Below are positions 8,949 to 24,411 of a DNA stretch of 32,000 bases, in pieces. The notes beneath the pieces were generated by a model, which saw only the letters and a list, made by a program, of their open reading frames with translations, was not told the origin of the DNA and searched no databases. Every line of letters starts with the position of its first letter. Within the stretch, counting starts at the first letter, position 1. Location: contig CANMZB010000007.1 of the NCBI GenBank assembly GCA_947502265.1, positions 124,324 through 156,323 of the forward strand, written 5' to 3'. Position numbers and translations under genes: made by a program. Source of the stretch: an uncultured Sulfitobacter sp. Its GTDB lineage: Bacteria; Pseudomonadota; Alphaproteobacteria; Rhodobacterales; Rhodobacteraceae.

Positions 8949-8972
8949 CATTTCAACAGCATCCGCAGAACC

Positions 8973-9785: not shown

Positions 9786-9861
9786 GACTGCGGCTCCTTT
9801 TCGCGATTGTCCTTTTATTTAGCACAGTGACCCGAAACGCAAACACCAAGCGCGTGCGAAT

Positions 9862-10152
9862 TTACCAAGGATTGCCGCTACGGTGTTCGAGAGCGCGCAA
9901 AACAACAAGGTAGCATGCCTTGAGCGAGGGGGTGTCTGGACCACAACCAGAGCCGCACGGGTATGTCATTGACGCGGCGCGCAAACTGCCGTCACCCCAT
10001 GCAGGGTGCAGTTTGTGCAATCGTTTGACGTATTTGTCCGCCGCATGCGCGCGCTCCAGCAGCCGGTCGCAGAAACCCGCGCGCAGTGGCGGTGCCACCA
10101 TCTGCACCGCGCGCGCCGCATGGTGCAGATCCATCAACCCGATCCGCCGCAT
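9862..10152 (-). CDS. Hypothetical 96-97 aa basic protein, translationally coupled to GTA g15
   Basis: The ATG at 10152-10150 shares its A with the g15 TGA stop (TGATG); an in-frame GTG lies one codon upstream. Third-codon positions are mostly G/C, as in neighbouring genes. I recognise no family. Sequence: MRRIGLMDLHHAARAVQMVAPPLRAGFCDRLLERAHAADKYVKRLHKLHPAWGDGSL... Confidence 0.5.
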   Translation of the reverse strand: MRRIGLMDLHHAARAVQMVAPPLRAGFCDRLLERAHAADKYVKRLHKLHPAWGDGSLRAASMTYPCGSGCGPDTPSLKACYLVVLRALEHRSGNPW

Positions 10153-13100
10153 CACACTGTGATTTCGATGCGTTTAAACAATCCGGCACCGTATGTTGCC
10201 GAAATCTGCGCCACTTCGACGGTGATAGCACCCGTTGCCCCGTCCGCCGCCTGCTGCCCGGCGCTGTAGCTGTATGCCGGCTCTGTTACGATAGCCTCAT
10301 GCAGGGTGATCCCCGCCTGAATGATGCGCAACAGATAGCTCTCGGTTTCTTCACCCAACGGCACGTCCGGCCCTTCCCAGTCATCACCGTCAACGCGTGT
10401 ACGCCTGATCCAGCCCAAGCTAATCGCGCCGCTAATCTCGGCCTTTGCCCGCAGGTGCGCGGGCGCATAGGGGCGCAGACCGTTGCCATCGAACGCGCGT
10501 TGCAGTTGGCGATACGACGGGTCGCTCACGGCGCGCTGCGCAGGCCCGATCCGGTAGTATTGCGCGACGCGCCGCAGATTTCGGCCCAGCTCGATCTGTT
10601 GCGGCACCCCGTTCAACAGCACGAACTGCGATCCCGCAGGCCAGACGTCCGGCATCAGCCCGTCCGATCCCGCCTGCCCGCGCAACCGCTCGCTGAGCAG
10701 ATAGGTTCCCGGCGCCAGAAGTTCGGCCTTGCGGAACTGGAACACTTCCCATCGGTCCGAACTGCCATCCCCGATGGCCGCCAGATTGGCTCCGCTCAAA
10801 AGCGCCTCGGGCGTGACTGTCTCCAACCGCCCGCTGATCAGCTTTACCTCAAGCGCATCGCCGCGATCAATCAAACCCGCACAAGCCGACCCCATCGCAG
10901 AGCGTGTGGCCCCGATGGCCGCACGGATCGGCAGAACCGTATTAATCCCGAAATCCTGCTCTGACTGACTGCTATACAGCGCCACACTGCCCGGCCACGG
11001 CATGGCAGTGGCGGCGATGTAGGGCGCAAAGGAAACTTCATCGCCTTTCAAGAGCGGCAGGTCAAGGAACAGCGGCAGAACCGGAACCGGAGCCACGAAG
11101 CGGCGCAAACGCACCTGTTCGTCCTCCAGAGGGGCCGCATCATAAACCTGTGGGTCAATCCGCACCGCGTCGATTTGTTGGAACTCTGCCTGATCCACGC
11201 GGTCAACACGATAAAGCGATGGCCCCTCGTCCTGATCCGCGGGCAGACGCACGATATCGCCCGCACGCACCGGCAGATTTGAGGGTGGCAGCGCGAACTG
11301 AACCGTATCGCGCGCAATCCGTGCCTCGTTAAGCCACCGCTCGGCAACCTGCCGCCCTTCTGCACGGGTCAGCATCATTGTGAATTCGGTTGCGGCCACT
11401 GCATGGGTTTGTTCGTCGGGCAAAACCGCCTCTTCGGAAATCACATCATAGCTGGCATCCGCCTGAATGAAACGCACGCGCACGCGGCCTGACAATGCGG
11501 CCTCTGCCTCGCGTGTCTGCACGGTGACGCCGTCCATCTCGCCGCTCACGGCAAAGCGGTCGGGATCAAGCGCTGTCTCGCGCAGGCCATCGCGCATCCG
11601 GAATATCAACGTTCCGTCCCGCTCTATTGCATCAAAGCCGAAACGCACCATCAAAGGCTGAAGCGATGCGCGGGCATCGCCCACATCCGAGACACCGTAG
11701 CCACGCACAACGCCGTAAAGCGCGCTGGTGTCATAGGCCACTACATCCGCACGACGGCAGATCTCGTCCACAACCGATGCAAGGCTGCGCGACGAGCTGC
11801 GCCCGTTGAGCCAGTGACCACGTGCATAGGCTTTTCCGTCGCTCCAAAGATCAAGGTTTCCGGGAAAGAACGGATAGGGCCGCACATCCCATGCCCAGAC
11901 AAAGGCGCGCCGCATGTCAATCATCGGCCCTTCGTATTCTATCCCTTGCGGATTGTTTTCCGGCTGCGCCCAATAGTCGATCATCGCGCGCAGGTATTGC
12001 ATCTGCATATAGTCATCACGCGATCCGTCGGAATGCCGTGGCAAGCTGCTTTCAGAGGACTTGGCATCAAGGAATTTATTGGGCTGGTTTGTCCCCTTGT
12101 CGATGGCCGCACAACCGTATTCGGTGAACCAGACGGGCTTCAACCCCGGCAGCCATCCCGTTGGTGCAATCTGGCGCTCTCCGTCGATCCGGTTGTAGTG
12201 CAGATTGCCCCACCAATTGCGAATGTCCTTATAGCGGTAAATCCACGGCTCGTTATGGGTGCCATCGGTGATCGGCGTGCGGATTTGCGCCTCGCGCTCT
12301 TCGGACGATGCGTAATACCAATCATACCCCTCACCGCCTTCGATATTGGATTGCAGATATTCGAGGTTATAGATGGAATCCCATTCCAGCGCGTCACGAT
12401 GCGCGACACCGTCCCGCCAATCGGACAACGGCATATAATTGTCGATGCCGATAAAATCAATCTGCGGATCGGCCCATAGCGGATCAAGATGGAACAGCCG
12501 GTCACCGCTGCCATCCAGCGGCTGATAGCCGAAATATTCGCTCCAGTCAGCGGCATAGCTGATCTTGGTCTGTGGCCCCACAAGGGCACGCACTTCGGCG
12601 GCCAGCACGCGCAACGCCTCTACCGCCGGAAACGTATTGCGCGCGCTGCGAATACGCGTGATCCCACGCATCTCGGACCCGATGCAAAAGGAATCGACCC
12701 CGCCCGCCGCCTGACACAGCGCCGCGTAGTGCAAAATAAATCGGGTCAGGCTCCATTCTTCGGGCCCGGTATAGCTGACGATCCCGTCCGCAACGGTGAA
12801 ATCCGCCGCTGTGACGGTGCCGAAAAAGGTCGCAACCTCGTCAGCCGCCGCCGGTGTCGCGTCGGTTGATCCTTCGCGCCCGGGCGCAAGCGCCGTGGTG
12901 ATCCGCCCACGCCACGGCAACGCAGGCTGTCCCGCCTGGCCCGTATAGGGATTGGGCAGATCGTTCCCCTCATGCTGGTCCATCAGGATAAACGGATAAA
13001 ACATCACCGCCTTGCCTTCAGCGTTCATTGCCTGAATAGCTTCGATCACAGAGGCATCCGCCGGTGTACCGCCATAGATCGGGCGGCTGTCTGCGCCGCG

Positions 13101-14084
13101 CGCTATGACACCGGCACTGGTGCGTGCCAGACCGGCCACACGCCAGGGCATCTCGTCCCCGTCAATTTCAGGATCTTCGACCTTGGGGCGCACCGCACAT
13201 TCCCCCACCCGCAGATCCGAGCCGAACCACGACACCACCAACGAGGCCGCCTTCAACTCCGGCAACTCCTCTGTCAGCGCGTCCAGCGACGTGAGGAAAT
13301 CGGTCTTGCCCGAGGGCGAGTTGATATTGGCGCTCCAGCGCGCCTGATCGTCGCCCTCATAGCTAACCGGCGTTGTGGCGAGCGAATATTCCCCTGTCCC
13401 CGGAATCAACGCGACGCCTTCAACGCCATAGCTCAACGCATGGCTGGCGTCCGGCGCGCCGCGCTGTTCGGGGCGGATTACCTCGAACGAGAACTGCGGC
13501 ACGCGGTTGCCAAAACGTTGCAACGCCAACGCTTCCATCACCACATAGGCAGTGCCGCGATAGGCAGGCACCATGCCCGCCCCTTCAATCGCCTCGATCA
13601 ACGGATCGGGCGGTTGCGCCGCGCTGCCTGTGTAGACGCGCATGTTCAAATCATCTGGCGCGATCTCTTCACCATCGGCCCAGATACGGCCCACGCTGGT
13701 AATTTCGCCCTCGCACAAAGCAATCGCTAGGTGGACGGAATAACTGTAAGCTGTTGTGCGCGGCTCGGGGCTACCGCCTTTACCACCGCCACTTGTGGTC
13801 GCAACCTCCTCGAAATCCGACGCCCAGATCACCTGCCCGCCCAACCGCAGCCGACCATAAAGCTGGCTAACGGGATCGCCCTCACCGGCCCCTGTCAGAC
13901 GAAACCGGTCCACGCGGCCTGTCTCGACCGCCTGCGCACCGGCACCGAGTATCTTTTGATCCACCACACGGCCCAATGTTGCACCCACGGCGCGGCCAAC
14001 GGCCACCGAAGAAAGCCCCGCCAACGTGCCGCCAACGGAGCCGCCTACAGCCGCACCCGCTGCTGAAAATAATATCGTCGCCAT
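10152..14084 (-). CDS. g15: GTA g15: large baseplate/host-specificity protein (megatron)
   Basis: 1310 aa. It has a Gly/Ala-rich hydrophobic N-terminus and a central glycoside-hydrolase/TIM-barrel-like region typical of GTA g15. The size, the last-gene position and the neighbouring cysE match RcGTA g15. Confidence 0.9.
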   Translation of the reverse strand: MATILFSAAGAAVGGSVGGTLAGLSSVAVGRAVGATLGRVVDQKILGAGAQAVETGRVDRFRLTGAGEGDPVSQLYGRLRLGGQVIWASDFEEVATTSGGGKGGSPEPRTTAYSYSVHLAIALCEGEITSVGRIWADGEEIAPDDLNMRVYTGSAAQPPDPLIEAIEGAGMVPAYRGTAYVVMEALALQRFGNRVPQFSFEVIRPEQRGAPDASHALSYGVEGVALIPGTGEYSLATTPVSYEGDDQARWSANINSPSGKTDFLTSLDALTEELPELKAASLVVSWFGSDLRVGECAVRPKVEDPEIDGDEMPWRVAGLARTSAGVIARGADSRPIYGGTPADASVIEAIQAMNAEGKAVMFYPFILMDQHEGNDLPNPYTGQAGQPALPWRGRITTALAPGREGSTDATPAAADEVATFFGTVTAADFTVADGIVSYTGPEEWSLTRFILHYAALCQAAGGVDSFCIGSEMRGITRIRSARNTFPAVEALRVLAAEVRALVGPQTKISYAADWSEYFGYQPLDGSGDRLFHLDPLWADPQIDFIGIDNYMPLSDWRDGVAHRDALEWDSIYNLEYLQSNIEGGEGYDWYYASSEEREAQIRTPITDGTHNEPWIYRYKDIRNWWGNLHYNRIDGERQIAPTGWLPGLKPVWFTEYGCAAIDKGTNQPNKFLDAKSSESSLPRHSDGSRDDYMQMQYLRAMIDYWAQPENNPQGIEYEGPMIDMRRAFVWAWDVRPYPFFPGNLDLWSDGKAYARGHWLNGRSSSRSLASVVDEICRRADVVAYDTSALYGVVRGYGVSDVGDARASLQPLMVRFGFDAIERDGTLIFRMRDGLRETALDPDRFAVSGEMDGVTVQTREAEAALSGRVRVRFIQADASYDVISEEAVLPDEQTHAVAATEFTMMLTRAEGRQVAERWLNEARIARDTVQFALPPSNLPVRAGDIVRLPADQDEGPSLYRVDRVDQAEFQQIDAVRIDPQVYDAAPLEDEQVRLRRFVAPVPVLPLFLDLPLLKGDEVSFAPYIAATAMPWPGSVALYSSQSEQDFGINTVLPIRAAIGATRSAMGSACAGLIDRGDALEVKLISGRLETVTPEALLSGANLAAIGDGSSDRWEVFQFRKAELLAPGTYLLSERLRGQAGSDGLMPDVWPAGSQFVLLNGVPQQIELGRNLRRVAQYYRIGPAQRAVSDPSYRQLQRAFDGNGLRPYAPAHLRAKAEISGAISLGWIRRTRVDGDDWEGPDVPLGEETESYLLRIIQAGITLHEAIVTEPAYSYSAGQQAADGATGAITVEVAQISATYGAGLFKRIEITV

Positions 14085-14524
14085 CAGGAAACCTCCTCGG
14101 GAAATTCAAAACACGCCACTATGCGGCGGTGCCACGGGGCGCTCAGCGGGCTTTGCACAACCCCGTGACCGCAATAGGCGTGGATAAACTGCGGCACGTC
14201 GCCCGCCTGCGACAGGATGCCCAGATGTTTGGCCACCGAGCCCTGCCGCATCCGGAACAAAACGACATCGCCGGGCAAAGCGTCGCGCACAGGTTTGGCC
14301 GCCAGATGCCGCAATGCCGCCGCCCAAAGCCGCTCCTCGCCCTGCGGTTCTGACCAGTCCATCGAATAGGCGGGAATGGCCTCGGGTTCCTGCCCGTACA
14401 CCTCGCGCCAGACGCCGCGCACTAGCCCCAGACAATCGCTGCCCGCGCCCCTGACAGAGGCCTGATGCACATATGGCGTCCCAATCCAGCCGCGTGCCGC
14501 CGCGACAAGCGCTGAACGGATCAT
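14084..14524 (-). CDS. g14: GTA g14: NlpC/P60 family cell-wall peptidase
   Basis: Contains WIGTPYVHQASVRGAGSDCLGLVRGVW (catalytic Cys) and a downstream His (KHLGIL). The ATG at 14524 forms an ATGA overlap with the g13 stop, and the g14 stop overlaps the g15 ATG (TGATG). Confidence 0.85.
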   Translation of the reverse strand: MIRSALVAAARGWIGTPYVHQASVRGAGSDCLGLVRGVWREVYGQEPEAIPAYSMDWSEPQGEERLWAAALRHLAAKPVRDALPGDVVLFRMRQGSVAKHLGILSQAGDVPQFIHAYCGHGVVQSPLSAPWHRRIVACFEFPEEVS

Positions 14525-15408
14525 CGCAACGATCCGCCGCTGTTGGCCTTGCCGCTCGACGGAATGGACACAACCCAATCCTCGCCCGGCAAATCCGGAA
14601 ACCCTTGAAAGTTGTCAAAATTGTTGAACTTTAGCCTGCACGTCTCGGTGCGCTTGTCACACCCCGCAATCAATCGAACCTGTGTGCCAGGCTCGACAAG
14701 TCCGCGCACCGGCTCCCACAGCTCGACAATGCGCGCGCTGTCCTCAATACGGTCACTCTTGATCGTCCCCCACAGCCCCTTTGCGGGCCCGCTCATGATT
14801 TCCAGACGTCCGCGCGTGAACCAATCGGTATCGAACGACAAAAAACCCTCCCAGACAAAGCGCCGCGCGTCCTGCACGGCCTGCGCCGGCAGCACATGTG
14901 CATAGCCCTCACGCGCCAGATTAAAGCGGCACGCCTTGTCGCCCAGAACCGCCGTACACGGCTTTTGATACACGCGCCCTAGGGGACGGTTCAACGCTTC
15001 GGTCAGCCCGCGCAATTCTGCGCGAAACGCACCGCCCGTGCGGGTCAGCTCGCCAATGGTACCGCGAAAGTTAAGCCAATGCTGCGCGGGGTTTGCCCAG
15101 TTAACCAGCCACGCACGCACCTCTGCGCCATCAAAACGACCCTGTTCTATCTCGTCCTCACGCAATGACGCATCGCTCAGCGCCCCCAACGCCTCGGTGT
15201 TGTCCACCGACAGGCCGGTGGATTGCGCCAGCGCCAACGCACTTAACCCCGTGTCTGCCCGAAACGTGATACCCGCGAAAGACAATGGCAGATCGTGATC
15301 GGTAAACGCAAAAACCTCACCATCACGGCGCATGATCGCCCACGCATGGCACACAGTTGTCAGACCTCCCTCAAGGTGGGCTGCAAGATCGGAATTGAAA
15401 TCAACCAT
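14521..15408 (-). CDS. g13: GTA g13: baseplate hub protein (DUF2163 / BR0599-like)
   Basis: Contains LTTVCHAWAIMRRDGEVFAFTDHDLPLSFAGITFRA, characteristic of the DUF2163 family. The start is ambiguous: ATG 15408 gives TGATG with the g12 stop, or GTG 15411. Confidence 0.85.
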   Translation of the reverse strand: MVDFNSDLAAHLEGGLTTVCHAWAIMRRDGEVFAFTDHDLPLSFAGITFRADTGLSALALAQSTGLSVDNTEALGALSDASLREDEIEQGRFDGAEVRAWLVNWANPAQHWLNFRGTIGELTRTGGAFRAELRGLTEALNRPLGRVYQKPCTAVLGDKACRFNLAREGYAHVLPAQAVQDARRFVWEGFLSFDTDWFTRGRLEIMSGPAKGLWGTIKSDRIEDSARIVELWEPVRGLVEPGTQVRLIAGCDKRTETCRLKFNNFDNFQGFPDLPGEDWVVSIPSSGKANSGGSLR

Positions 15409-16040
15409 CACACACGCACCTCCCGGACTGGAATATCCGGCACCTGTCCCGCCTGAAAGCTTGCGATGTTGGTCAGAATGCGATCACTGTCAAAACGCAC
15501 AGGCACGTCGAATTCATACCCCACATAGACCCGCGTGTCCGGGTCGGGCGGGCGCATGAAACTGATGATACCCGTTGTATCATCAATGGAATAATCAATG
15601 GTCTCACGCTTTTCGTCCTGCTCTACCATGACCAGAACACTACCCTTGACCGGCTTGGTGATCGGACGCGCATAGGCATGATCCCCCGAACGATAGGTTT
15701 TGATGATCTGGAATTCCTTGCGCACCCCATCACCGGTGGCAATCTGCTGATCATCATAGGCGATCCTGGCCGAGGGCTTGGCGGATTTGAAATCCGACCA
15801 GTCCTTCCAGCGAAACCCGAACATCTGGCCGTACCGCGCCTCGTAAAACGCGATCACCTTTTCGATGTCGTCAAGCGAGCGCATCCCCAGTCCCGCGTCA
15901 TAAACACGACGCGAATGGGCCCAGGGCGTGTTGCGCTCCTCATAGCCGTTGGCAAGCGTCACCACATCGACCCGCCGCTGCGGACCACCCAATGCGCCAA
16001 AACTCAGATCCGCCGGAAACAATACCTCATGAAAATTCAT
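15408..16040 (-). CDS. g12: GTA g12: distal tail protein (DUF2460 family)
   Basis: 210 aa starting MNFHEVLFPADLSFGALGGPQRRVDVVTLANGYEERNTPW, the typical N-terminus of the DUF2460/TIGR02217-type family. Confidence 0.85.
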   Translation of the reverse strand: MNFHEVLFPADLSFGALGGPQRRVDVVTLANGYEERNTPWAHSRRVYDAGLGMRSLDDIEKVIAFYEARYGQMFGFRWKDWSDFKSAKPSARIAYDDQQIATGDGVRKEFQIIKTYRSGDHAYARPITKPVKGSVLVMVEQDEKRETIDYSIDDTTGIISFMRPPDPDTRVYVGYEFDVPVRFDSDRILTNIASFQAGQVPDIPVREVRV

Positions 16041-16055
16041 CTCTAATTCCCTCGC

Positions 16056-16718
16056 TTAACGGTTTTTCTGGCCGGCACTCAGCGCACGGCTCATTTGGGC
16101 GGCGATCTGTGCGCGCGACCGCTGGAAGCCTGCCACATCAGGCGTCGAGATGTTCATCACCACCGTTGGCGTACCGCCACCGCCACCACCCGCACGCACC
16201 CCCAGCTTGCCGTCGGGGCCGCGCGCGAGCGGCATAATCGCCTCCGGCCCCGCTTCGCCCATCACGCCCATGCCGCCGCGCATGCCGAAATGCGTGGCCT
16301 GACTGACCACGCCCCCATCAGCAAATGGCATCACACGGCCCTGACTGAACGGCGCACCATTGGCAAAAGGCAGAACCCCCTGCACCAACCCCGTAACCCC
16401 TTGGGAAATCAGCCCGCCTAAATGATCGGTCACCGGTTTGACCGCGGCGCTATAAGCCGAGCGCGACAGCGATTGCGCCACGGTAGTTAACGCATCCGAC
16501 AGCTTCATGCCGTCGAAAACCACGCCATCAAACGCCTTGCGCAAACCACGGCTCAGACCACGCTCAAGCGTCGCCACATCCTTGCCCGTGGCCGCCAGTG
16601 AGGTTCGCATCCGGCGCAATTCGCTGTCAAAGCCCGATACCAGAACACTGGTCTGCCCCAGCGTCTGGTTAAGCGACTGCGCGTCCGTGCCCAGTGCGTC
16701 AAAGGTTTCTTCATCCAT
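16056..16718 (-). CDS. g11: GTA g11: short tail tape measure protein
   Basis: 220 aa with the tape-measure motif MGEAGPEAIMPL and a Gly-rich C-terminal part. It sits after the chaperone pair. Confidence 0.8.
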   Translation of the reverse strand: MDEETFDALGTDAQSLNQTLGQTSVLVSGFDSELRRMRTSLAATGKDVATLERGLSRGLRKAFDGVVFDGMKLSDALTTVAQSLSRSAYSAAVKPVTDHLGGLISQGVTGLVQGVLPFANGAPFSQGRVMPFADGGVVSQATHFGMRGGMGVMGEAGPEAIMPLARGPDGKLGVRAGGGGGGTPTVVMNISTPDVAGFQRSRAQIAAQMSRALSAGQKNR

Positions 16719-16920
16719 GATCGTGATCCTTTTGCTTGTCCGGATAGGCCGCCATCAGCGCCTCCAGCCCCTCGCTCAGCAGCGGCGCTGTGCCGCTGCC
16801 GCCTGCCCCCAGCATCAGCTGCAATTCCGCAGGGGTCAGCGCCCAGAACGCATCGGGCGTAAGCCCCAGCCCCTGCAACCCCGCCCGTATCAGCGCGGGC
16901 CAGTCAAAGCCGTCGCTCAC
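16711..16920 (-). CDS. g10.1: GTA g10.1: small tail-assembly chaperone-like protein
   Basis: 69 aa. The GTG start forms a GTGA overlap with the g10 stop, and the gene overlaps the g11 start by 8 nt. Position and size match RcGTA g10.1. Confidence 0.65.
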   Translation of the reverse strand: MSDGFDWPALIRAGLQGLGLTPDAFWALTPAELQLMLGAGGSGTAPLLSEGLEALMAAYPDKQKDHDHG

Positions 16921-17231
16921 GGGCGCACCATAAACGCCCGCGCCAAAAGCTCCGCAGCGGCCTGCGCTGCGGCCATCGGGCCACCCTCAATCTCGGCGTG
17001 CGCCAGCGTGTCCGCATCCATGCGCACACCCGCCCCCCGCAGCCCCGCCGCCAGCAACGCCAGCACATCGCGTGTGCTATACCGCCCGCCCTCGAACCGC
17101 TCGACCAGCGCCACCAGCGACGGCTCGTCCAGCACCTCTTCCAACTCCGCCAACGCACCCAGCGTCAGCTTCATCCGGTGACGCTGCCCATCGACCGTCA
17201 ACGCCACCTCTCCCCGCCACCGGTTGCTCAT
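16917..17231 (-). CDS. g10: GTA g10: tail assembly chaperone-like protein
   Basis: 104 aa from ATG 17231; the track start at 17237 is TTG. MSNRWRGEVALTVDGQRHRMKLTLGALAELEE is typical of the gene-transfer-agent family protein that follows the tube gene. Confidence 0.75.
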   Translation of the reverse strand: MSNRWRGEVALTVDGQRHRMKLTLGALAELEEVLDEPSLVALVERFEGGRYSTRDVLALLAAGLRGAGVRMDADTLAHAEIEGGPMAAAQAAAELLARAFMVRP

Positions 17232-17233
17232 CT

Positions 17234-17662
17234 TCAAATTCCCGAATCGACGTAAGGCACGAACTGCAACTGACCGGCAGACGCAAGCGACAGCTCATAG
17301 GTCGCCTCACCATTCAACTGGCCCGCGTATTCCAGCGAGGTCACCTGAAACGGCCCCTCGACCACACCGAACTCCGGGATCACAATCTGGAAATCCGGCG
17401 TCAGCCCGTCGAACAAAAGCTGGCGTGCGCGCTCGTCCGTGGCCTCGTCGCGAAACACGCCCGAGCCGCTGATCGCCGCCGACCGCACACCGGCCCCCGC
17501 CAGCAACTGCCGCCAACCTCCCGCGGAATCAAGCGATGTGACATCCACCGCCTCGGCGTTGAAATTGATGCGCGTGGCACGCAGCCCCGCAATGGTCTCA
17601 AAGTTGCCATCGGTCGTCATATCAACCTTGATCAAAAGGTCTTTGCCTGCTTGAACAGCCAT
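17234..17662 (-). CDS. g9: GTA g9: major tail (tube) protein, TP901-1-like
   Basis: 142 aa starting MAVQAGKDLLIKVDMTTDGNFETIAGLRATRINFNAEAVDVTS. CAGGAG RBS upstream. Confidence 0.85.
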   Translation of the reverse strand: MAVQAGKDLLIKVDMTTDGNFETIAGLRATRINFNAEAVDVTSLDSAGGWRQLLAGAGVRSAAISGSGVFRDEATDERARQLLFDGLTPDFQIVIPEFGVVEGPFQVTSLEYAGQLNGEATYELSLASAGQLQFVPYVDSGI

Positions 17663-17702
17663 TCTGTATACTCCTGTTAAAAGCCTGAAAGCGTTTTACT
17701 AT

Positions 17703-18113
17703 TCAGTCGTCTTGCACCCGTGCACGAAACCGCAGATCAATCTGGCGCGCACTTGCCGCATCAATCCGGCGCGCCGTAGCCCGATCAAATCCCAATGAAA
17801 CAAGCCGCCCGCGCGCCAGCGTCAGATCGGCACCATGCAGCGCATCGCTGATCGCTGCCGCCGCGCGCTTGGCGCTGGCAAAGCCGGGGTTGGTCGTAAT
17901 CACGGAAACGCTCAATGTATGCGCCGCCCCCGCGCCACTACCGTCCGAGGCATCGCGCACCGTCTCTGTTCCCAGTTGCACATAGATCTCCGGCAAGCTG
18001 CCCGCAGGCACCGCATCATAGATCGCGCTGCCCACCTCAGCTGCCAACGCCGTATCGGCCGTCAAGGCCGCGAATACCGCAGCCTGAAGCGCTGCTGAAA
18101 CCGCATAGCTCAT
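17703..18113 (-). CDS. g8: GTA g8: tail terminator (DUF3168-like)
   Basis: 136 aa. ATGA overlap with the g7 stop. Ala-rich N-terminus MSYAVSAALQAAVFAALTAD, typical of DUF3168 proteins. Confidence 0.8.
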   Translation of the reverse strand: MSYAVSAALQAAVFAALTADTALAAEVGSAIYDAVPAGSLPEIYVQLGTETVRDASDGSGAGAAHTLSVSVITTNPGFASAKRAAAAISDALHGADLTLARGRLVSLGFDRATARRIDAASARQIDLRFRARVQDD

Positions 18114-18448
18114 ACCACCTGCTCCTCTTGCGCAAAGCAGGTCAGATAGCGCCCGTCAGAGTCGCGCTCGGCCACTGCTTCGATGGTAAAAATCCGGTTT
18201 CCCTGACGAAACCGCTGTTGCGCCGCAGGGCGCTCGGAACTGCCGGCAGGGGCCGCGCGCACGGTGATTTTATAGGCCATCCGGCTCACCGGTGCTCCGC
18301 TTGCGGCGGTCTCGCGCCCTGTACGCGCCGTCATCTCGGCCCAGACAATTCCCACCGGCACCCACCCGTTGACAAATCCGCCCGCCCCGTCGCTCAAACG
18401 GTCCGGCGCTTCCAGAACCAGCTGCCGGTTCAAACGCGGCACGCTCAT
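18110..18448 (-). CDS. g7: GTA g7: head-closure/stopper protein (head-tail joining family)
   Basis: 112 aa from ATG 18448, which forms ATGA with the g6 stop. The track start at 18520 would overlap g6 by 76 nt. Confidence 0.8.
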   Translation of the reverse strand: MSVPRLNRQLVLEAPDRLSDGAGGFVNGWVPVGIVWAEMTARTGRETAASGAPVSRMAYKITVRAAPAGSSERPAAQQRFRQGNRIFTIEAVAERDSDGRYLTCFAQEEQVV

Positions 18449-19041
18449 GTCCGCGCTCCAGCGCCAAGGCGCATCATGCGGAACCGCTCGATCAGGCTGG
18501 TCACCCCAAAAGGCATACAACCGCCACTCAACCCTGTGTCGTGGCGGTATTCATAGTAATGCGCCGCGAGCATCAGAACCGCCTGCTGCAAATCGCTCGG
18601 CACATCGTCCCATTCGGGACCAAATCCCGCCAGAAACCGCACCCGCAACTCGCCGCCTCTATCGGGTGCAGGCAACGCAGCACCCGCCGCCCGCAGGCGC
18701 GGTGTGTGCATATCGCGCTCCAGCCAATAGGCCGAGGAATGAACCGGACGGATCGCGCCATCCCTTCCAACCATAGTCACATCCGCAATCACCGTCACAG
18801 GAGCCACGCCAAGCGCCAGCGCCTGACCGTTTCTCAATTCGTTGACCGACAGCGTAAACTCACGCTCGATCAGCGCCTTGCCGGTGCGGGCCTCGATCGC
18901 CGTCAGAGCGGCGCGCAGAAAACCACGCAACACCACATCCTGCACCTCTGCATCGGCAAAGCCCGTGCCCATGCGCATATGCGCCTTGAACGCTGCTACC
19001 GGCAGGGCTTCATCCGGCACGTTTGTCTCTTCGATCAACAT
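18445..19041 (-). CDS. g6: GTA g6: head-tail adaptor (connector) protein
   Basis: 198 aa from ATG 19041 (MLIEETNVPDEALPVAAFKAHMRMGTGF...), preceded by GAGAGAGG. The upstream part of the track ORF lies in a structured spacer. Confidence 0.8.
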   Translation of the reverse strand: MLIEETNVPDEALPVAAFKAHMRMGTGFADAEVQDVVLRGFLRAALTAIEARTGKALIEREFTLSVNELRNGQALALGVAPVTVIADVTMVGRDGAIRPVHSSAYWLERDMHTPRLRAAGAALPAPDRGGELRVRFLAGFGPEWDDVPSDLQQAVLMLAAHYYEYRHDTGLSGGCMPFGVTSLIERFRMMRLGAGART

Positions 19042-19212
19042 CTCAAAGCCTCTCTCAACTTCCCTCAACTCCCCTATCTCGGACGCACGCCCCGCCCCTC
19101 CGCATTGCTCGGTTGGAGGGGAGCAGCTAGACAACACGATGGGGTCTCAACAGGGGCGCGCGCCCGGTCCGGAGCAAGGGATGACCCCCGCCCCGGCTTC
19201 AGCATTGCCGTC

Positions 19213-20388
19213 TTAGGCCGTGCCGAATTTCAGAAGCTTGATCGCAGCAAAATCGCTCACATCACCGCCCACACGCTTGGTCGCGTAGAAAAGCACATGC
19301 GGCTTGGCACTGAAGGGGTCACGCAAGATACGCAGATCGGGGCGTTCCGCGATGGTGTATCCGGCGGCAAAATCGCCAAAGGCAATGGCCATCTCGTCGG
19401 CATCCGCATCGGGCATGTCCTCGGCAATCAGTACAGGATAGCCCATCAGACGCGCAGGCTCTCCCGCCGCCAGACCATCGGACCACAGGAAACGACCGTC
19501 CATATCCTTAAGCTTGCGAATGACACCCGCAGTTTTCGAGTTCATCACAAATGTCGCATTGGCGCGGTACTGCGCACCCAGCGCATAAACCACATCAACG
19601 ATGGCATCGGCGGTGACTTCACCCGCTACACCCGTCGGCACATACCCCAGATTACCCCAGGCCCAGACGTCATTGTCGACGGTGCTATGCGCAAGCAAAC
19701 CCTTGGGCTTGTCGATGCCGTCCCCGTTGATAAACGCCCCCGCTTCGGCACGCGCAAACTTGTCCGCGATACGCCCTGCAAGCCACCCCTCGATGTCGAA
19801 CGCAGCATCATCCAACAGACGCTGGGACGCCTTGGGCAGCGCGCTCAGCTCGTGCAGTTGCACGGTGATGCGGTCGATCTGCGGCGTGTCGCTTTCGCCC
19901 ACAATCGTGGATTCTGTGGCCCAACCGGCACCCACATCGGAATGATCCACCAACACGTCATAAGACGTCGCCTCCACGTTCACCACAGACGCAATTGCGC
20001 GGATTGAAGCGGTGGTGTTCAGCACCGATTTCACGATGTCCGAGGTCTGCGGATCAACCAGATAACCGCCGTCGGAATTGACAGCTGTGGACAGCGCCTT
20101 GCCTTCCAGTTGCAGCCCGCGCAACCCGTCGTCATCGCCAGTCCGCACATAGGCGTTAAAGGCTTTTTGATGCGGCGCACCCGCATCGGTGGCACCCGCC
20201 AAAGGTGGACGCGACGCATTGAGTGTTTTACGATCCAGCATGTTCATTCGCTCTTCTGTTTGTTGAAGTTTGGTCTCGATCTCGGCCTGAAAGCCTTTGA
20301 ATTCGTGGACAAAGCCGGTCACGGCCCGCCGCACGTCTTGTGCCGGGGATAATTCGTTTCCCACGGCCTTTTCTTCAGTCATGCTCAT
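19213..20388 (-). CDS. g5: GTA g5: HK97-family major capsid protein
   Basis: About 391 aa with an N-terminal delta-domain-like helix, then DGGYLVDPQTS and the HK97-like core. Three in-frame ATGs exist (20394, 20388, 20382). 20388 gives an ATGA overlap with the g4 stop and sensible spacing from GGGGGAA. Confidence 0.92.
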   Translation of the reverse strand: MSMTEEKAVGNELSPAQDVRRAVTGFVHEFKGFQAEIETKLQQTEERMNMLDRKTLNASRPPLAGATDAGAPHQKAFNAYVRTGDDDGLRGLQLEGKALSTAVNSDGGYLVDPQTSDIVKSVLNTTASIRAIASVVNVEATSYDVLVDHSDVGAGWATESTIVGESDTPQIDRITVQLHELSALPKASQRLLDDAAFDIEGWLAGRIADKFARAEAGAFINGDGIDKPKGLLAHSTVDNDVWAWGNLGYVPTGVAGEVTADAIVDVVYALGAQYRANATFVMNSKTAGVIRKLKDMDGRFLWSDGLAAGEPARLMGYPVLIAEDMPDADADEMAIAFGDFAAGYTIAERPDLRILRDPFSAKPHVLFYATKRVGGDVSDFAAIKLLKFGTA

Positions 20389-21017
20389 GCGCATTTCCCC
20401 CGTTTGGTTGCTGTTTTCGGTGTTTTCAATTCGGCACGCGCCGCATCAAAACCCGCCGCCATGTCACGCAGGATCGCTCCAAGGCCGACGAAACCGTCCG
20501 CCTTCGCCGCGACCCGCGCACTGGGCAGCATCGGAAAGGTCACCAACGACACCTCCCAAAGCTCCAGTTCCTGCAAGAGCCGCTGGCCCTTGGTATTTTT
20601 CGTGGCTTTCACCGTGCGGTATCCGATGGACAACCCGTCAATCGCTCCCGCCTCGATCAGGGCGATCGCCTCGCGCCCCTTGTCCACGGATTTAAGGATA
20701 CGCCCCTTGACGAACAGACCACGCGCGTCCTCGCGCACCTCGTCCCACACGCCGATGGGTTGCGCCGGATCATGCTGCCACAGCATCTTGACGCCCCGTT
20801 TCGCCGCCGACAGCGCCTTGAGGCTCGCGCCGTACGCCCCCGCTTCCACTACGTCATTGCCCTGATCCACCGCCCCGAAAAAGCTGGCGTAGCCGCTAAT
20901 CTCGACACCCGTTTCAACCTTCGCGACCTCATCAAGCGCGATGAATTTGCGCTCCAGCCCGGGCAATCCGCCCCCGTTCCCCGGGGCTGGCCCGAGGTCG
21001 TTTCCACTCATATCCAT
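20385..21017 (-). CDS. g4: GTA g4: HK97-family prohead maturation protease
   Basis: 210 aa with ISGYASFFGAVDQGNDVVEAGAYGASL and GLSIGY motifs. AAGGAGA RBS lies 5 nt upstream. Confidence 0.9.
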   Translation of the reverse strand: MDMSGNDLGPAPGNGGGLPGLERKFIALDEVAKVETGVEISGYASFFGAVDQGNDVVEAGAYGASLKALSAAKRGVKMLWQHDPAQPIGVWDEVREDARGLFVKGRILKSVDKGREAIALIEAGAIDGLSIGYRTVKATKNTKGQRLLQELELWEVSLVTFPMLPSARVAAKADGFVGLGAILRDMAAGFDAARAELKTPKTATKRGKCA

Positions 21018-21044
21018 GGATGTCTCCTTGTTAGAATTTTCCGT

Positions 21045-21266
21045 CTAGGGGGCCACCGCCAGAAACGATTGCACCGCCTGCGCCAGGATCATCGCCACAA
21101 CCCCGTAAACCGTCAGCCACAACCGCCGCTCCAGCCGCTCCATCATCACCTCGATCCGGTCCAGCCGGTGGGTCAGATTGGCAAAATGGATCGCGCTGAC
21201 CTGCTCATGCGCCTGAAGCTTCATTCCCGGCGCGCATTGAAACCGCTCGACCGGAAGATCACTCAT
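21045..21266 (-). CDS. g3.5: GTA g3.5: small protein with C-terminal hydrophobic helix
   Basis: 73 aa. It overlaps the portal stop by 8 nt and has a C-terminal TM-like segment (LWLTVYGVVAMILAQAVQSFLAV). The position matches RcGTA g3.5. Confidence 0.6.
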   Translation of the reverse strand: MSDLPVERFQCAPGMKLQAHEQVSAIHFANLTHRLDRIEVMMERLERRLWLTVYGVVAMILAQAVQSFLAVAP

Positions 21267-22431
21267 CGGCAGCCACCACAGGCAGGCCCAGCAACTTGCG
21301 CTTTTCCGCCTCCGTCAGGAAATCCGCACCCGCAACACGCGCCCATTGCGCATCGCGCTCGGCACTCAGCGCCGGCACCTGATCCAGATCGGGTTTCAGA
21401 GCGACCACCTCACCGGTGAACCCCGACAGCCAATGCGCCAGCACCGCCGTCACCCGCGTCACCAAAGGCAGCACCGTCAGACGGTAAAACGCGCGGTTCG
21501 CCTCTTGAAAGTTTGCATAAGTCGCATCGCCCTGGATACCGATCAGCATTGGCGGCACCCCGAAGGCCAAAGCAATCTCGCGCGCCGCCGCTTCCTTGGT
21601 CTGCTGGAATTCCATGTCCGAAGGCGAAAATCCCATCGGCTTCCAATCCAGCCCACCTTCTAGCAGCATCGGACGGCCCGCGTTGCGTGCGCCCTGATGA
21701 TGGCTTTCCATCTCGCTGACCAAACGCTCGTATTGGTCGTTGCTGAGCGTCCCTTGCCCCTCGGCGCCTTTATAAATGATCGCCCCTGAAGGCCGCGCCG
21801 CATTGTCCAGCAACGCTTTGGACCAGCGCGAGGCAGAGTTATGCACATCCATCGCCATCGCCGCCGCCTGCATCGGTGAAAAGCCGTAGTGATCGTCTTG
21901 CGGATGGAAATTACGCACATGACAAACGGGCGTGCCCTGCGTGGCATCAAACCGGTGCTTGCGCCCCCCTACAGCGTATTCATACGCCACCGGCCAGCCA
22001 TCCGCGCCCGGCACCACCGACATCCGGTCAGAGCGTAGAACATGCAACTCCAGCGGCACACCTGTCTCACCACCCACCGCCTCGACATAACCATCACCAG
22101 ACAGCAGCAGCTGCGCATAAAGCGCCTCCAGCAGCTCCGCACGCCCCTGCGCGCCGTTGGGCCGCGCCAGCAACGCCAGCATCGGATGCACCTCAAAACG
22201 CTGCTCTGCGTTCTGCAACACCAACGGCAGCGCCGCCGCCGCTTCCGCAATCAACTTGACCGAACGAAACCCTACCGGATTGCCCAAAAACCCCGTCCGC
22301 GTCAGCGACACCGTATCGCGCGGGCTCCAGGCCACGCGACCCGCACTCTGCACCGATACGACGCGCCCCGTGGCCGAGGCCTTTGCCTCGATCACATCTC
22401 CCGTGCCGCGCCGTAGAAAATCAAACATCAT
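21259..22431 (-). CDS. g3: GTA g3: HK97-family portal protein
   Basis: 390 aa from ATG 22431 (MMFDFLRR...), with AAGGAG 8 nt upstream. The track start at 22491 is GTG and has no RBS. Confidence 0.92.
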   Translation of the reverse strand: MMFDFLRRGTGDVIEAKASATGRVVSVQSAGRVAWSPRDTVSLTRTGFLGNPVGFRSVKLIAEAAAALPLVLQNAEQRFEVHPMLALLARPNGAQGRAELLEALYAQLLLSGDGYVEAVGGETGVPLELHVLRSDRMSVVPGADGWPVAYEYAVGGRKHRFDATQGTPVCHVRNFHPQDDHYGFSPMQAAAMAMDVHNSASRWSKALLDNAARPSGAIIYKGAEGQGTLSNDQYERLVSEMESHHQGARNAGRPMLLEGGLDWKPMGFSPSDMEFQQTKEAAAREIALAFGVPPMLIGIQGDATYANFQEANRAFYRLTVLPLVTRVTAVLAHWLSGFTGEVVALKPDLDQVPALSAERDAQWARVAGADFLTEAEKRKLLGLPVVAADE

Positions 22432-22563
22432 CCCGCTCGCTCCTTGCCCATGTCCCGTGGCAGCCACGACTGCCTCAACGCTTCGAAACACAATCTCTCA
22501 CCAAAGAATTAAGGGGGCCGGACCAGACCGTACGTTGCGCACGACGCACAAAAATCCGCGCAT

Positions 22564-22588
22564 AAAAAAAGGAGGGCCAAAGCCCTCC
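22564..22588 (-). terminator. Canonical intrinsic terminator inside the GTA cluster, between g2 (TerL) and g3 (portal)
   Basis: The minus strand reads GGAGGGC-TTTG-GCCCTCC-TTTTTTT, starting 24 nt after the TerL TAG stop. About 130 nt of spacer follow before the portal start. Confidence 0.7.
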
Positions 22589-22612
22589 GTTTTCCCGTCC
22601 AACCACCACCCC

Positions 22613-24025
22613 CTAAAGCGAGCGCACACCGGGCTGTCGCCATTTCGCCGCCGGTGCGATCATCAACTCGTGCAGCGCCCAAACCAGCGCATCCACACGG
22701 TCGGGCGAACCACCGCCTTCGTATCCGCGCGCCGTCATCCGCGTCATCTGGTCCTCCAACCCGTCCAGATCAGGCATATGGCGTACACGCCCCTGCTCGT
22801 ACAATGCCGCCACCGGCTCCGCCCGCGCGACCTTCCCGCGCGTGGCGTGAACGCCCTTATACGGCACCAACGGATCAATCTGCCGGATCACCTCCTGCAC
22901 CATCTGCCCGCCCTGATTAACCTCCGCCACCAACCGGTCCGCGCCGTATTGCTCCATCGCAGCGATCGCGGCCCGCGCCCAGCCGCTCGGCCCCTCACCG
23001 CTCACCGTACAATCGGCCAGCACAAAGGCCCGCCAGTCCTGCGGCGGGCCGCTGCTTTGCACCCCGGCCACCACAATCCCGCATTCATCCGCTGCCTTGC
23101 CCGATGTCGTCGCCGGATCTATCGCAACCACAATGCGGTCCAGCACAGGCACCTTGCGCACACGGCACGTTTCCAGCATCGCGCTCGTCCATAACGCCCC
23201 CTCTGCATCCGCCAACAACACCCCGTCCAACTCCTGCCGCCCCAGCCGCGTACCGCGATAACGCGCGCGCACCTCCTCCAGAAACGACGCCGCCAGATTG
23301 GCACGGTTCGCCTCTGTCGGCGCATGGGTCACAACCGTCGAAGGCGACTTCAACAACTCCTTCAACACGCCCACATTTCGCGGCGTGGTCGTCACGCACA
23401 CCTGCGGTCGTTCCCCCAGCCGCAAAGCGAATTGCAACATGTCCCACGTCTCTTGCGCCTTCTTCCACTTGGCGATCTCGTCCACCCAAGCTGCATCAAA
23501 CTGCGGCCCGCGCAGCCCTTCGGGATCATGCGCCGAATGCACCGTCGCAATCGCGCCATTCGGCCAAACCAGCCGCTTGCGCGACGCTTCCCAATCGGGG
23601 CGTCGATCCTCGGGCGAACAGGCTAATATCCCGCTGTCACCAAAAATCATCACTTCGCGCACCTGATCTATCGTCTCTCCCACAAGAGCGACACGCGCGC
23701 ATTGCCCCTTGTCCAGCGGACGTGCACCTTCCACCACGGACCGGACCCATTCGGCCCCGGCCCGCGTTTTACCTGCACCACGCCCTCCCATTATCACCCA
23801 CGACCGCCAGTCTCCCTCTGGCGGCAACTGGTGCGGCATGGCCCAGAAGTCGAATAAAAAAGGGAGAGCACGAAGCTCCCCCTCTCCCAGCTCATTCAGG
23901 AATTGATCCTGTACCGATGGTGCTGCGGAGCCGATCCAACTTGCACCCGATGTCAGCCCGCGCCTGATCGAGATCAAGCGCGTACCCCCCGCGTGCAATT
24001 CCGGCTCGTTTGTTTCGACAGTCAT
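22613..24025 (-). CDS. g2: GTA g2: large terminase subunit (TerL)
   Basis: 470 aa with Walker A GGRGAGKT, a Walker B-like VDE in DAAWVDEIAKW, and a C-terminal nuclease domain. ATG 24025 is preceded by GGAG at a 10-nt spacing. This start overlaps g1 by 134 nt, so the start is uncertain. Confidence 0.9.
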   Translation of the reverse strand: MTVETNEPELHAGGTRLISIRRGLTSGASWIGSAAPSVQDQFLNELGEGELRALPFLFDFWAMPHQLPPEGDWRSWVIMGGRGAGKTRAGAEWVRSVVEGARPLDKGQCARVALVGETIDQVREVMIFGDSGILACSPEDRRPDWEASRKRLVWPNGAIATVHSAHDPEGLRGPQFDAAWVDEIAKWKKAQETWDMLQFALRLGERPQVCVTTTPRNVGVLKELLKSPSTVVTHAPTEANRANLAASFLEEVRARYRGTRLGRQELDGVLLADAEGALWTSAMLETCRVRKVPVLDRIVVAIDPATTSGKAADECGIVVAGVQSSGPPQDWRAFVLADCTVSGEGPSGWARAAIAAMEQYGADRLVAEVNQGGQMVQEVIRQIDPLVPYKGVHATRGKVARAEPVAALYEQGRVRHMPDLDGLEDQMTRMTARGYEGGGSPDRVDALVWALHELMIAPAAKWRQPGVRSL

Positions 24026-24245
24026 ACAGCATCAGCTCCGCTTTCTGGCAGCGCCCGATGACATCAGAAACGCTACTGATGGTTTTGGCCGCTGCGGTTG
24101 CATTGATATCCTCCCCGGCTCTGGCCCGTTCTTTCAGGCTCTCTATCTCTTGTCTCAACTCGGCCAGCGTGCGTTTGACAGAGGCAAACAGGGCTTCTGT
24201 TTCAGCGAGCTCGTCGAGGTGATGCGCCGGGGTGCTAACAGTCAT
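23892..24245 (-). CDS. g1: GTA g1: small terminase-like protein
   Basis: 117 aa from ATG 24245 (MTVSTPAHHLDELAETEALFASVKRTLAELRQEIESLKERA...), a coiled-coil-rich small protein at the first position of the cluster. GGAAGGA lies upstream. The track start at 24278 is TTG. Confidence 0.7.
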   Translation of the reverse strand: MTVSTPAHHLDELAETEALFASVKRTLAELRQEIESLKERARAGEDINATAAAKTISSVSDVIGRCQKAELMLYDCRNKRAGIARGGYALDLDQARADIGCKLDRLRSTIGTGSIPE

Positions 24246-24290
24246 CCGATATCGGTCCTTCCGCTTGGGTATCTCCAACCGAAAGACATG

Positions 24291-24319
24291 AAAAAATGAT
24301 CCCTGACACGCCGTCAGGG
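24291..24319 (-). promoter_or_regulatory. Terminator-like hairpin in the leader of the GTA operon
   Basis: The minus strand reads CCCTGAC-GGCGT-GTCAGGG-ATCA-TTTTTT, ending about 45 nt upstream of the g1 ATG. The T-tract is offset 4 nt from the stem, so this is weaker than a textbook terminator. Confidence 0.35.
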
Positions 24320-24378
24320 CCGCTCCTTCAAATCTCCTAGCATGTTTGAATACCTACCCGATAAACCGGGCAGAGTCA

Positions 24379-24411
24379 AGAAAAACGGGGTTAACAGAAC
24401 CTGCTAACCCC
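24379..24411 (-). terminator. Rho-independent terminator of mltG
   Basis: The minus strand reads GGGGTTAGCAG-GTT-CTGTTAACCCC (11-bp stem, one mismatch) followed by GTTTTTCTT. It starts 47 nt after the mltG stop. Confidence 0.65.

Follow-up and report, generated by a model that had tools for sequence, protein, structure and literature searches.

RcGTA-type gene transfer agent cluster of a Sulfitobacter-like bacterium and conserved non-coding elements that may take part in its control

We analyzed a 32-kb stretch of DNA (contig CANMZB010000007.1; the whole stretch is hereafter the window, and all features described lie on its minus strand) and found that it carries the head-tail structural gene cluster of a gene transfer agent (GTA) of the type known from Rhodobacter capsulatus (RcGTA). 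The 17 uninterrupted open reading frames (ORFs) g1–g15 cover 14,094 bp, from the ATG of g1 at 24245 to the stop codon of g15 at 10152. Judging from the sequence, we give a probability of about 90% to the reading that the block is a vertically inherited and domesticated HK97-like siphovirus module, kept under purifying selection in a Sulfitobacter-like chromosome of the Roseobacter group. The cluster itself is of a well-known kind; what we did not find described is its conserved non-coding elements, namely hairpins in the leader upstream of g1, a further hairpin in the gap between g2 and g3, and a structured RNA in the gap between the capsid gene g5 and the adaptor gene g6. An initial annotation of this DNA had reported 17 ORFs in about 14 kb between 10152 and 24245, and we found all of them intact and in the reported order. 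Its description of the 17-gene cluster as complete holds for those genes, but it missed an 18th gene, g16, as well as the leader and g2–g3 hairpins and the g5–g6 RNA.

Using the RcGTA capsid sequence from a PDB alignment, we retrieved the R. capsulatus protein and the contig encoding it (locus L082), on which the genes run fabG-acpP-LigT-fabF-yceG-g1-g2-g3-g3.5-g4-g5-g6-g7-g8-g9-g10-g10.1-g11-g12-g13-g14-g15-g16(DUF7742)-cysE. RcGTA (rcc01682–rcc01698, with g16 as rcc01699) thus has the same 17 genes and g16 in the same order as the window. All 17 structural genes were matched, with protein identities ranging from 31% for g1 (and 45% for g16) up to 74% for g3 and g9, and most of the proteins agree in length within a few residues, g4, g2, and g16 differing more. 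The flanking genes are 58–78% identical, and the arrangement fabG-acpP-x-fabF-yceG upstream and g16-cysE downstream is common to the two loci. Compared at the sequence level, the block and the R. capsulatus structural cluster are orthologs in every gene and in their flanks, in agreement with the RcGTA-type architecture that the initial annotation had recognized.

Profile searches with Pfam and NCBIfam, a check which that annotation had proposed, named every ORF from g1 to g15 except g1 and bore out its domain calls. The matches include three GTA-specific NCBIfam equivalogs with curated cut-offs, all of them clearly exceeded: NF048001 for g3.5 (107.7 bits vs. a cut-off of 50), NF058675 RcGTA_tape for g11 (348.8 vs. 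220), and NF048004 GTA_megatron for g15 (1864.9 vs. 800). An RcGTA chain was the top PDB match for the capsid, portal, adaptor, stopper, terminator, tube, distal tail protein, hub, and g15; these matches were near full length and scored two- to four-fold or more over the next entry, the RcGTA capsid 6TB9 reaching 590 bits with g5 and the next entry, 9gyi, 158 bits. No PHROG family was matched by g1, g3.5, or g16, and the alignment of the 220-aa g11 with phage tape measures, which have 390–1972 aa, was confined to their last ~100 residues (PHROG). In the profile searches, g1 (117 aa) gave no match to a helix-turn-helix or other domain but is homologous to gp1; the GTA small terminase, as defined experimentally, is without a DNA-binding domain (PMC6854486).

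As all the structural genes are phage-derived and the rest of a phage genome is lacking, one could regard the block as a decaying prophage, the remnant of a recent HK97-like siphovirus that has lost its lysogeny, replication, and lysis modules and has no host function. We consider this very improbable. No integrase, repressor, replication, or lysis domain was detected in any ORF of the window, whose 32 kb are the scope of all window-level negatives given here; the window contains no tRNA and no integrase fragment, and among the 31 short repeat families in 8500–26000 checked for attachment (att) sites, no direct repeat brackets the block. The absence of such genes and repeats had been noted in the initial annotation, and its expectation that head-spike, tail-fibre, lysis, and GafA-type regulator loci lie elsewhere is in line with their absence from the window.

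The chromosomal context argues in the same direction. We scanned one genome per prokaryotic species and obtained 80 loci, all from the Roseobacter group, to which one Logan contig was added to give 81. All 81 are colinear with the window on one strand, and 50 of them hold the core markers (g2, g3, g5, g9, and g11–g15) together with both mltG and cysE, the latter being downstream of g15/g16 in most of the loci. They come from Sulfitobacter, Roseobacter, Ruegeria, Leisingera, Phaeobacter, Tritonibacter, and other genera and show capsid identities of 71–94%; the 12-kb Logan contig is 97–100% identical to the window. A prophage remnant would hardly occupy the same site in 81 loci of many genera and in R. 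capsulatus, and when we looked for relatives without the block at this site, for pseudogenes, and for dN/dS values near 1, we found none of the three. The outcomes named beforehand as contradicting a GTA were all looked for, and none occurred: the proteins fall apart from those of phages, the block is accompanied by neither an integrase nor att repeats, and the region is present in 81 of 81 relatives. Still less credible is that the block could be the late region of an active temperate phage with its early region outside the window. The order of the head and tail genes is indeed that of a siphovirus late operon, but both ends of the block adjoin conserved host operons within ~200 bp, and the same ends are found in the 81 loci. 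Furthermore, the block has a truncated tape measure of 220 aa and, in g3.5 and g16, two genes found only in GTAs, and the nearest relatives among 50,697 deposited phage records show 42% identity for the capsid and 54% for the large terminase (TerL).

We computed ratios of nonsynonymous to synonymous divergence (dN/dS) against four Sulfitobacter relatives, of which locus L002 is the closest. The ratios were 0.03–0.34 for all 18 GTA genes and 0.03–0.11 for the flanking genes, and every gene of the block is thus under purifying selection. In comparison with L002, dS was 0.45–1.6 for 17 of the 18 GTA genes and 0.9–1.1 for the flanks, with an unusually low value of 0.20 for g1, and the G+C content at third codon positions (GC3) was 0.698 for the cluster and 0.701 for the DNA around it. 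Evolution within the block is fastest in g16, with 65% identity to the closest relative (79–94% for the other genes) and a dN/dS of 0.14–0.19 that still indicates purifying selection. With dS and GC3 equal to those of the housekeeping neighbours, we take the cluster to be of the same age as its surroundings and to be kept by selection. Orthology, GTA equivalogs, distance from phages, fixed context, and selection together make the block a member of the RcGTA type and not a prophage.

Turning to the non-coding elements, the region between mltG (yceG) and g1 starts with a terminator-like hairpin and T-run (24385–24413) directly after the mltG stop codon, marking the end of the upstream host transcript. 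An equivalent hairpin follows yceG in R. capsulatus, where yceG lies immediately 5' of g1 and was found by RT-PCR not to be co-transcribed with it (PMC9552610). The predicted GTA promoter (24333–24379) comprises a -35 element TTGACT (24379–24374), a 17-nt spacer, and a -10 element TAGGTA (24356–24351) and ends in a conserved CATGCTAGGAGA box (24333–24344) that is the likely region of the transcription start site (TSS). Downstream of it, a hairpin CCCTGACGGCGTGTCAGGG followed by T6 (24289–24319; stem 24319–24301, T6 24296–24291) extends from -74 to -46 relative to the g1 ATG and resembles an intrinsic terminator. The 3' arm of a second hairpin (24257–24285) enters the Shine-Dalgarno sequence GGAAGG of g1 (24262–24257). 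This layout is common to ~60 Roseobacter-group leaders and R. capsulatus: TTGACT-17-TATAG[AG], a CATGCTAG[AG]AGA box, a GC-rich hairpin that is bulged on its 3' side, T5–7, and a second hairpin running into the Shine-Dalgarno sequence before the ATG. On inspection by eye, R. capsulatus and most of the other leaders show the second hairpin. We found no Rfam family in the leader (24200–24480) and, in the literature searched, no publication describing the leader or g2–g3 hairpins, though intergenic hairpins may have been mentioned early on.

The R. capsulatus leader (L082 4358–4488) allows the elements to be placed with respect to published binding data. Its promoter-to-box layout extends from -129 to -84, the -10 element spanning -106 to -101 and the box -95 to -84; the hairpin follows at -74 to -52 and T6 at -51 to -46. 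GafA binds a fragment from -76 to -125 that holds the -10 element and the TSS (PMC6363796). The -10 element and box are within this fragment and the whole promoter layout is partly so, whereas the hairpin and T6 are downstream of it and thereby placed inside the 5' untranslated region (UTR). The promoter of the window is predicted to be functional and to have the same GafA-type layout, and we take its leader stem and T6 to be a candidate intrinsic terminator downstream of the TSS, as placed by the promoter motif and the R. capsulatus data.

The leader hairpin stays 46–53 nt from g1 even in loci where 0.7–3.2 kb have been inserted after mltG and, because of this fixed distance, belongs to the GTA leader. 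It was more stable than shuffled sequences in 44 of 46 leaders (median z -3.9). A whole-leader MAFFT alignment gave only the outer pairs of the hairpin, and we therefore counted covariation after realigning the hairpin segments. In the 46 leaders, 89.1% of the cells were paired, compared with 81.1% in shuffles (0/500) and 31–62% with slid partners; the value for the leaders is still reduced by a single register shift within the Sulfitobacter clade. Changes on both sides of a pair occurred in 52 cells, a count reached by none of 500 shuffles. The 66 G–U combinations against 9 A–C combinations fit pairing in the sense-strand RNA.

These observations bear on an alternative that sees no regulatory RNAs in the non-coding elements: the leader hairpin would only insulate the cluster from upstream read-through, and the g5–g6 element would be a DNA site at which a protein binds as an operator or recombination takes place. 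In its favour, the leader hairpin is flanked by an A-tract on the 5' side and a T-tract on the 3' side, a pattern typical of bidirectional terminators. However, a separate terminator is already in place after mltG, 5' of the promoter, both in the window and in R. capsulatus, and the fixed distance to g1, the location downstream of the GafA-bound fragment, and the G–U excess all suit an element of the GTA transcript. We find the insulator and DNA-site reading unlikely and return to it with the g5–g6 element.

The ORFs of the cluster leave two long gaps, of 181 nt between g2 and g3 and of 171 nt between g5 and g6, and each contains an element. The g2–g3 gap holds a terminator-like hairpin GGAGGGCTTTGGCCCTCC followed by T7 (22564–22588; z -3.67), and a corresponding hairpin is present in R. 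capsulatus at about 6222–6252 of L082. For counting such sites we used an RNAfold-based scan, as a scan for perfect stems under-counted the bulged leader hairpins. Terminator-like sites were found in the g2–g3 gap of 40 out of 76 loci (3.3/kb), in the g5–g6 gap of 3 out of 80 (0.22/kb), and in coding sequence at 0.47–0.72/kb, which makes them ~5–15 times denser in the g2–g3 gap than in coding sequence or the g5–g6 gap. Separately, the g2–g3 gap contains a conserved block GTGTTGC...GC..CG.ACGGTCTGGTTTC...TTAA (22500–22545 in the window) 3' of the terminator-like hairpin. Its core CG.ACGGT is also seen in the main-promoter spacer of some loci and is ~11-fold enriched in the spacer and the g2–g3 gap; it occurs in only 17–21 of 74 loci and is absent from the window leader and both R. 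capsulatus regions. The motif could be bound by a regulator or belong to an internal promoter, which we note as a weak lead.

The g5–g6 gap is 158–200 nt long in every locus and has a hairpin directly after the capsid stop codon and then a long interrupted helix. In the window, this structured RNA (19078–19197) consists of the P0 hairpin (19197–19167), an outer helix of 13 bp (19167–19155/19091–19079), and an inner helix of 10 bp (19140–19131/19108–19099) that closes a near-invariant loop (CTAGCTGCTCCCCTCCAACCGA, 19130–19109). The consensus of the 24-nt loop, C[U/C]AGCUGCU(C)CCCCUCCG[A/U]CCGA (= CUAGCUGCUCCCCUCCG[A/U]CCGA), is almost unchanged from R. capsulatus to Sulfitobacter. In a plain MAFFT alignment of 39 sequences, RNAalifold predicted 23 pairs, 21 of them with a compensatory change. 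The proportion of paired cells was 94.8%, compared with 80.9% in shuffles (0/500) and 33–54% with slid partners, and changes on both sides were observed in 145 cells against 42 expected (0/500). G–U combinations numbered 157 and A–C combinations 9, which again points to pairing in the sense-strand RNA.

We then searched a covariance model of the element against 83 sources (the window, loci L001–L081, and R. capsulatus L082; 1.63 Mb). Each of the 83 gave exactly one sense match, always in the g5–g6 gap and scoring 52–87 bits; the match in the window (19078–19170) had 64.4 bits and that in R. capsulatus was at L082 9566–9640. The only other matches were antisense hits to the same site at ≤26 bits, and this strand asymmetry, together with the G–U excess, argues against a DNA site. 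On the other side, folding the whole g5–g6 gap of the window as a single sequence gave an unexceptional z of -1.2. An exact-pattern scan found the motif in at least 120 IMG/VR contigs, and each of the 80 that we fetched was an RcGTA-type cluster no longer than 15 kb in which the motif lies between g5 and g6; these contigs thus seem to be GTA clusters that have been filed under viruses or proviruses. In total, the RNA was present in 163 of the 163 clusters examined, R. capsulatus included. At gathering scores, the window gave no match to any Rfam 15 family, 19000–19260 yielded nothing but chance miRNA matches (E > 3), the motif had no match in deposited phages, and the literature searched contained no description of the element.

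Three simpler roles for the g5–g6 element were considered and rejected. Pairing of the CCUCC-containing loop with the ribosome-binding region of g6 gave duplex energies no better than those of dinucleotide shuffles in the 81 loci (median z +0.35, z < -2 in 3 loci). A small ORF is excluded as 1-nt indels in the C-run break any frame, and the block is therefore non-coding. With terminator-like sites in only 3 of 80 gaps, it is no terminator site either. Our best guess, which we make with low confidence and from sequence features, is a cis-acting mRNA element, either a processing or stability site or the binding site of a factor that recognizes the loop, which would uncouple the expression of the head genes from that of the tail genes. 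A co-expression analysis cited in PMC9552610 places a transcription-unit boundary at rcc01688 (g6).

By homology with RcGTA, a GafA-type activator would fire the single promoter upstream of g1; in R. capsulatus, activation by GafA is under CtrA and quorum-sensing control (PMC6363796, PMC9638019). Transcription would start ~100 nt upstream of g1 and pass through the terminator-like hairpin of the leader and, in many lineages, through another after g2. If read-through of these hairpins is required, expression would depend on anti-termination. In Caulobacter, RNA polymerase reads past a terminator behind the first GTA gene with the help of GafZ, a homologue of the C-terminal part of GafA; according to the same authors, GafA might anti-terminate likewise, and for Rhodobacterales this is suggested only (PMC11150451). 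By analogy, the leader and g2–g3 hairpins would fit GafZ-type anti-termination. Of the proteins then made, g1 and g2, the small (TerS) and large terminase subunits, would fill proheads of g3, g3.5, g4, and g5 with headfuls of random cellular DNA. The head capacity, as estimated from the 71% capsid identity to RcGTA, would correspond to DNA pieces of ~4 kb, and with headfuls far smaller than the 14.1-kb cluster, the element could not transfer itself. The products of g6–g8 would connect the head to a short tail built from g9–g11, and the g12–g15 baseplate would breach the recipient envelope, while head spikes, tail fibres, lysis genes, and regulators would, going by RcGTA biology, be encoded elsewhere in the genome.

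Within this scheme the g5–g6 RNA would act in cis on the mRNA. Combining the elements, we tentatively propose, at slightly less than even odds, that RcGTA-type clusters from Rhodobacter to the Roseobacter group have an undescribed layer of cis-acting RNA control. It would consist, first, of a leader terminator ~20–50 nt into the 5' UTR, often with a second one after g2, and GafA-dependent processive anti-termination and, second, of a g5–g6 RNA that is bound or processed by a dedicated factor and sets the balance of head and tail expression.

Several points weigh against these readings. For the cluster of this marine Sulfitobacter-like bacterium, particle production is presumed by analogy; the closest species representative, at 94% capsid identity, is an uncultured Sulfitobacter. 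The evidence spans the 32 kb of the window. Such clusters are common among Roseobacter strains, of which only a few are known to produce particles. Termination, anti-termination, and a role of the g5–g6 RNA are likewise predicted from sequence. Finally, the leader hairpin of the window is among the weakest (-14.4 kcal/mol, z -2.15) and the T-run is missing from L002, its nearest relative, so that termination in the leader may be relaxed in this lineage. The weak hairpin would also be expected if the cluster, though intact and of RcGTA type, were silent or non-productive, its regulators or accessory loci having been lost or its genes being kept for another use: the degraded leader hairpin of the window and L002, compared with other Sulfitobacter loci, suggests regulatory drift. 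Yet all 18 genes are intact, the dN/dS values against the four relatives are unlikely for functionless genes, and the promoter, ribosome-binding sites, translational coupling, and g5–g6 RNA have all been kept. We think it unlikely that the cluster is silent and prefer to see in it a GTA cluster maintained for its function.

The individual genes are as follows. The head module begins with g1 (23892–24245), the GTA small terminase, which shares 31% identity over 102 aa with R. capsulatus gp1 (E 6e-11) and is encoded directly 5' of TerL. The latter, g2 (22613–24025; 470 aa, PF03237 and PF17289, the T4-type N and C domains Terminase_6N/6C, 71% identity to R. capsulatus g2), has the Walker A motif GGRGAGKT, and the portal g3 (21259–22431; 390 aa from the ATG at 22431) is of HK97 type (PF04860, TIGR01537), with 74% identity to R. 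capsulatus and Rcc01684 as its best PDB match (637.7 bits). Next come the 73-aa GTA head formation protein g3.5 (21045–21266; NF048001, the RCAP_rcc01685 family), the HK97 prohead protease g4 (20385–21017; S78, PF04586, TIGR01543, 66% identity to R. capsulatus), and the HK97-fold major capsid protein g5 (19213–20388; 391 aa, TIGR01554, 71% identity to R. capsulatus). The connector genes are the head-tail adaptor g6 (18445–19041; 198 aa, TIGR02215 or gp6-like connector, PDB match Rcc01688, 49% identity to R. capsulatus), the stopper or head closure protein g7 (18110–18448; 112 aa, PF05521 or Phage_HCP, PDB match Rcc01689), and the tail terminator g8 (17703–18113; 136 aa, PF11367, formerly DUF3168, PDB match Rcc01690).

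The tail proper comprises the TP901-1-type tube g9 (17234–17662; 142 aa, PF06199, TIGR02126, PDB match Rcc01691, 74% identity to R. capsulatus), two tail assembly chaperones, g10 (16917–17231; GTA-gp10 family, PF11836, 59% identity to R. capsulatus) and g10.1 (16711–16920; rcc01693 family, PF09550, TIGR02216), and the short tape measure g11 (16056–16718; 220 aa, NF058675) with the motif GEAGPEAIMPL; this motif and the Walker A of g2 had both been picked out in the initial annotation. The baseplate genes are the distal tail protein g12 (15408–16040; PF09343 or DUF2460, TIGR02217, PDB match Rcc01695), the hub g13 (14521–15408; PF09931, formerly DUF2163, and PF09356 or BR0599, TIGR02218, PDB match 6TBA_7A), the NlpC/P60 cell-wall peptidase g14 (14084–14524; TIGR02219, PF00877, 66% identity to R. 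capsulatus), and the 1310-aa "megatron" g15 (10152–14084; NF048004), in which PF13547 (GTA_TIM), PF13550 (Phage-tail_3), and PF23666 (Rcc01698_C) were found and which matches RcGTA g15 over its full length with 1584 bits. The 18th gene, g16 (9862–10152; DUF7742, PF24891, 96 aa from its ATG), is 45% identical to the R. capsulatus rcc01699 homologue of the same family, and its ATG overlaps the g15 stop codon by 1 nt (TGATG), which couples its translation to that of g15.

Reading the junctions base by base confirmed all the start/stop overlaps reported earlier: ATGA at g4/g5, g6/g7, g7/g8, and g13/g14; TGATG at g12/g13 and g14/g15; GTGA at g10/g10.1; and overlaps of 8 nt at g3/g3.5 and g10.1/g11. 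With g2 starting at its only ATG (24025), g1 and g2 overlap by 134 nt in different frames (23892–24025). The overlap is 134–137 nt in ~50 of the 75 loci examined and longer in most others, and the g2 N-terminal motif GLxSGAxW[IL]xxA is conserved. TerS is reported to be conserved in its C-terminal helix only (PMC6854486), and this helix is thus dual-coding.

On the downstream side, g16 is followed by the serine O-acetyltransferase gene cysE (8973–9785; PF06426, TIGR01172), a conserved neighbour and no particle component, and by pyruvate dehydrogenase (PDH) E1a, E1b, and E2; on the other side are mltG (YceG) and fabF. Profile matches support both flanks as initially annotated. The earlier statement that cysE follows g15 in R. 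capsulatus was right as to the presence of cysE there, but the small g16 lies between the two, as in the window. In that species, g16 (rcc01699) begins 3 bases after g15, is co-transcribed on the GTA transcript, and can be deleted without a phenotype, whereas cysE1, the next gene, has its own transcript and affects GTA receipt and biofilm formation (PMC9552610). The rest of the window encodes an M23 peptidase, a bactofilin, two cyclophilins, pgk, a GNAT acetyltransferase, acpP, fabG, fabD, and cytochrome b561/YceI proteins.

These results have practical as well as biological consequences. For correct annotation, the block is not to be called a prophage, and the cluster flags its organism as a potential GTA producer and recipient. 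The non-coding elements bear on the gating of GTA expression, in which a self-lethal 14-kb operon is kept silent in most cells and fully on in few. The conserved leader hairpin makes it possible to test directly whether GafA anti-terminates, as has been suggested, and the g5–g6 RNA is a target for mutagenesis in the genetically tractable R. capsulatus.

Among known systems, phage late operons contain intergenic RNA elements such as the RNase III sites of T7 and the put RNAs of HK022. The g5–g6 RNA resembles these in being a long interrupted helix between a highly expressed capsid gene and downstream operon genes but has no sequence or Rfam relationship to them, and we know of no counterpart to its invariant 24-nt loop. 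An RcGTA-like roseophage (PDB 8GTC) has homologues of g12, g13, and g15 (133–808 bits); for these proteins it scores much lower than the RcGTA chains (g15, for instance, 808 vs. 1584 bits), its megatron has a different N-terminus, and it is a replicating phage with a full genome. The GTA of Caulobacter crescentus (CcGTA) is likewise a ~14-kb cluster with a terminator early in the operon; the window and its relatives have terminator-like hairpins in the leader and after g2. Compared by description, its terGTA consists of three 150-bp GC-rich repeats after the first gene, unlike the simple hairpin and U-tract of the window (PMC11150451).

The closest characterized system, RcGTA, agrees with the window not only in its genes but also in the leader (TTGACT-17-TA..., CATGCTAGGAGA box, hairpin and T6, and hairpin at the ribosome-binding site), in the terminator-like hairpin of the g2–g3 gap, and in the g5–g6 RNA. 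The two differ in several respects: the g1/g2 overlap is 134 nt in the window and, going by the gene calls, 50 nt in R. capsulatus, g16 has 96 vs. 142 aa, and g16 and cysE are separated by 76 nt in the window and overlap in R. capsulatus. Beyond cysE, the window has the convergent PDH operon and R. capsulatus rcc01701-cdsA2. Between acpP and fabF, a GNAT acetyltransferase gene (27115–27666) takes the place of the LigT-type 2'-5' RNA ligase gene of R. capsulatus (L082 1211–1762), and this swap is the sole break in the otherwise conserved upstream synteny. The species of the window differs from the GTDB species representatives, the best showing 94% and none 100% identity. RcGTA-like clusters are reported from almost all marine Rhodobacteraceae (PMC5786225), and those of the 81 Roseobacter-group loci, which do not include DsGTA of Dinoroseobacter shibae or Ruegeria pomeroyi, are colinear with the cluster of the window and have the same flanks.

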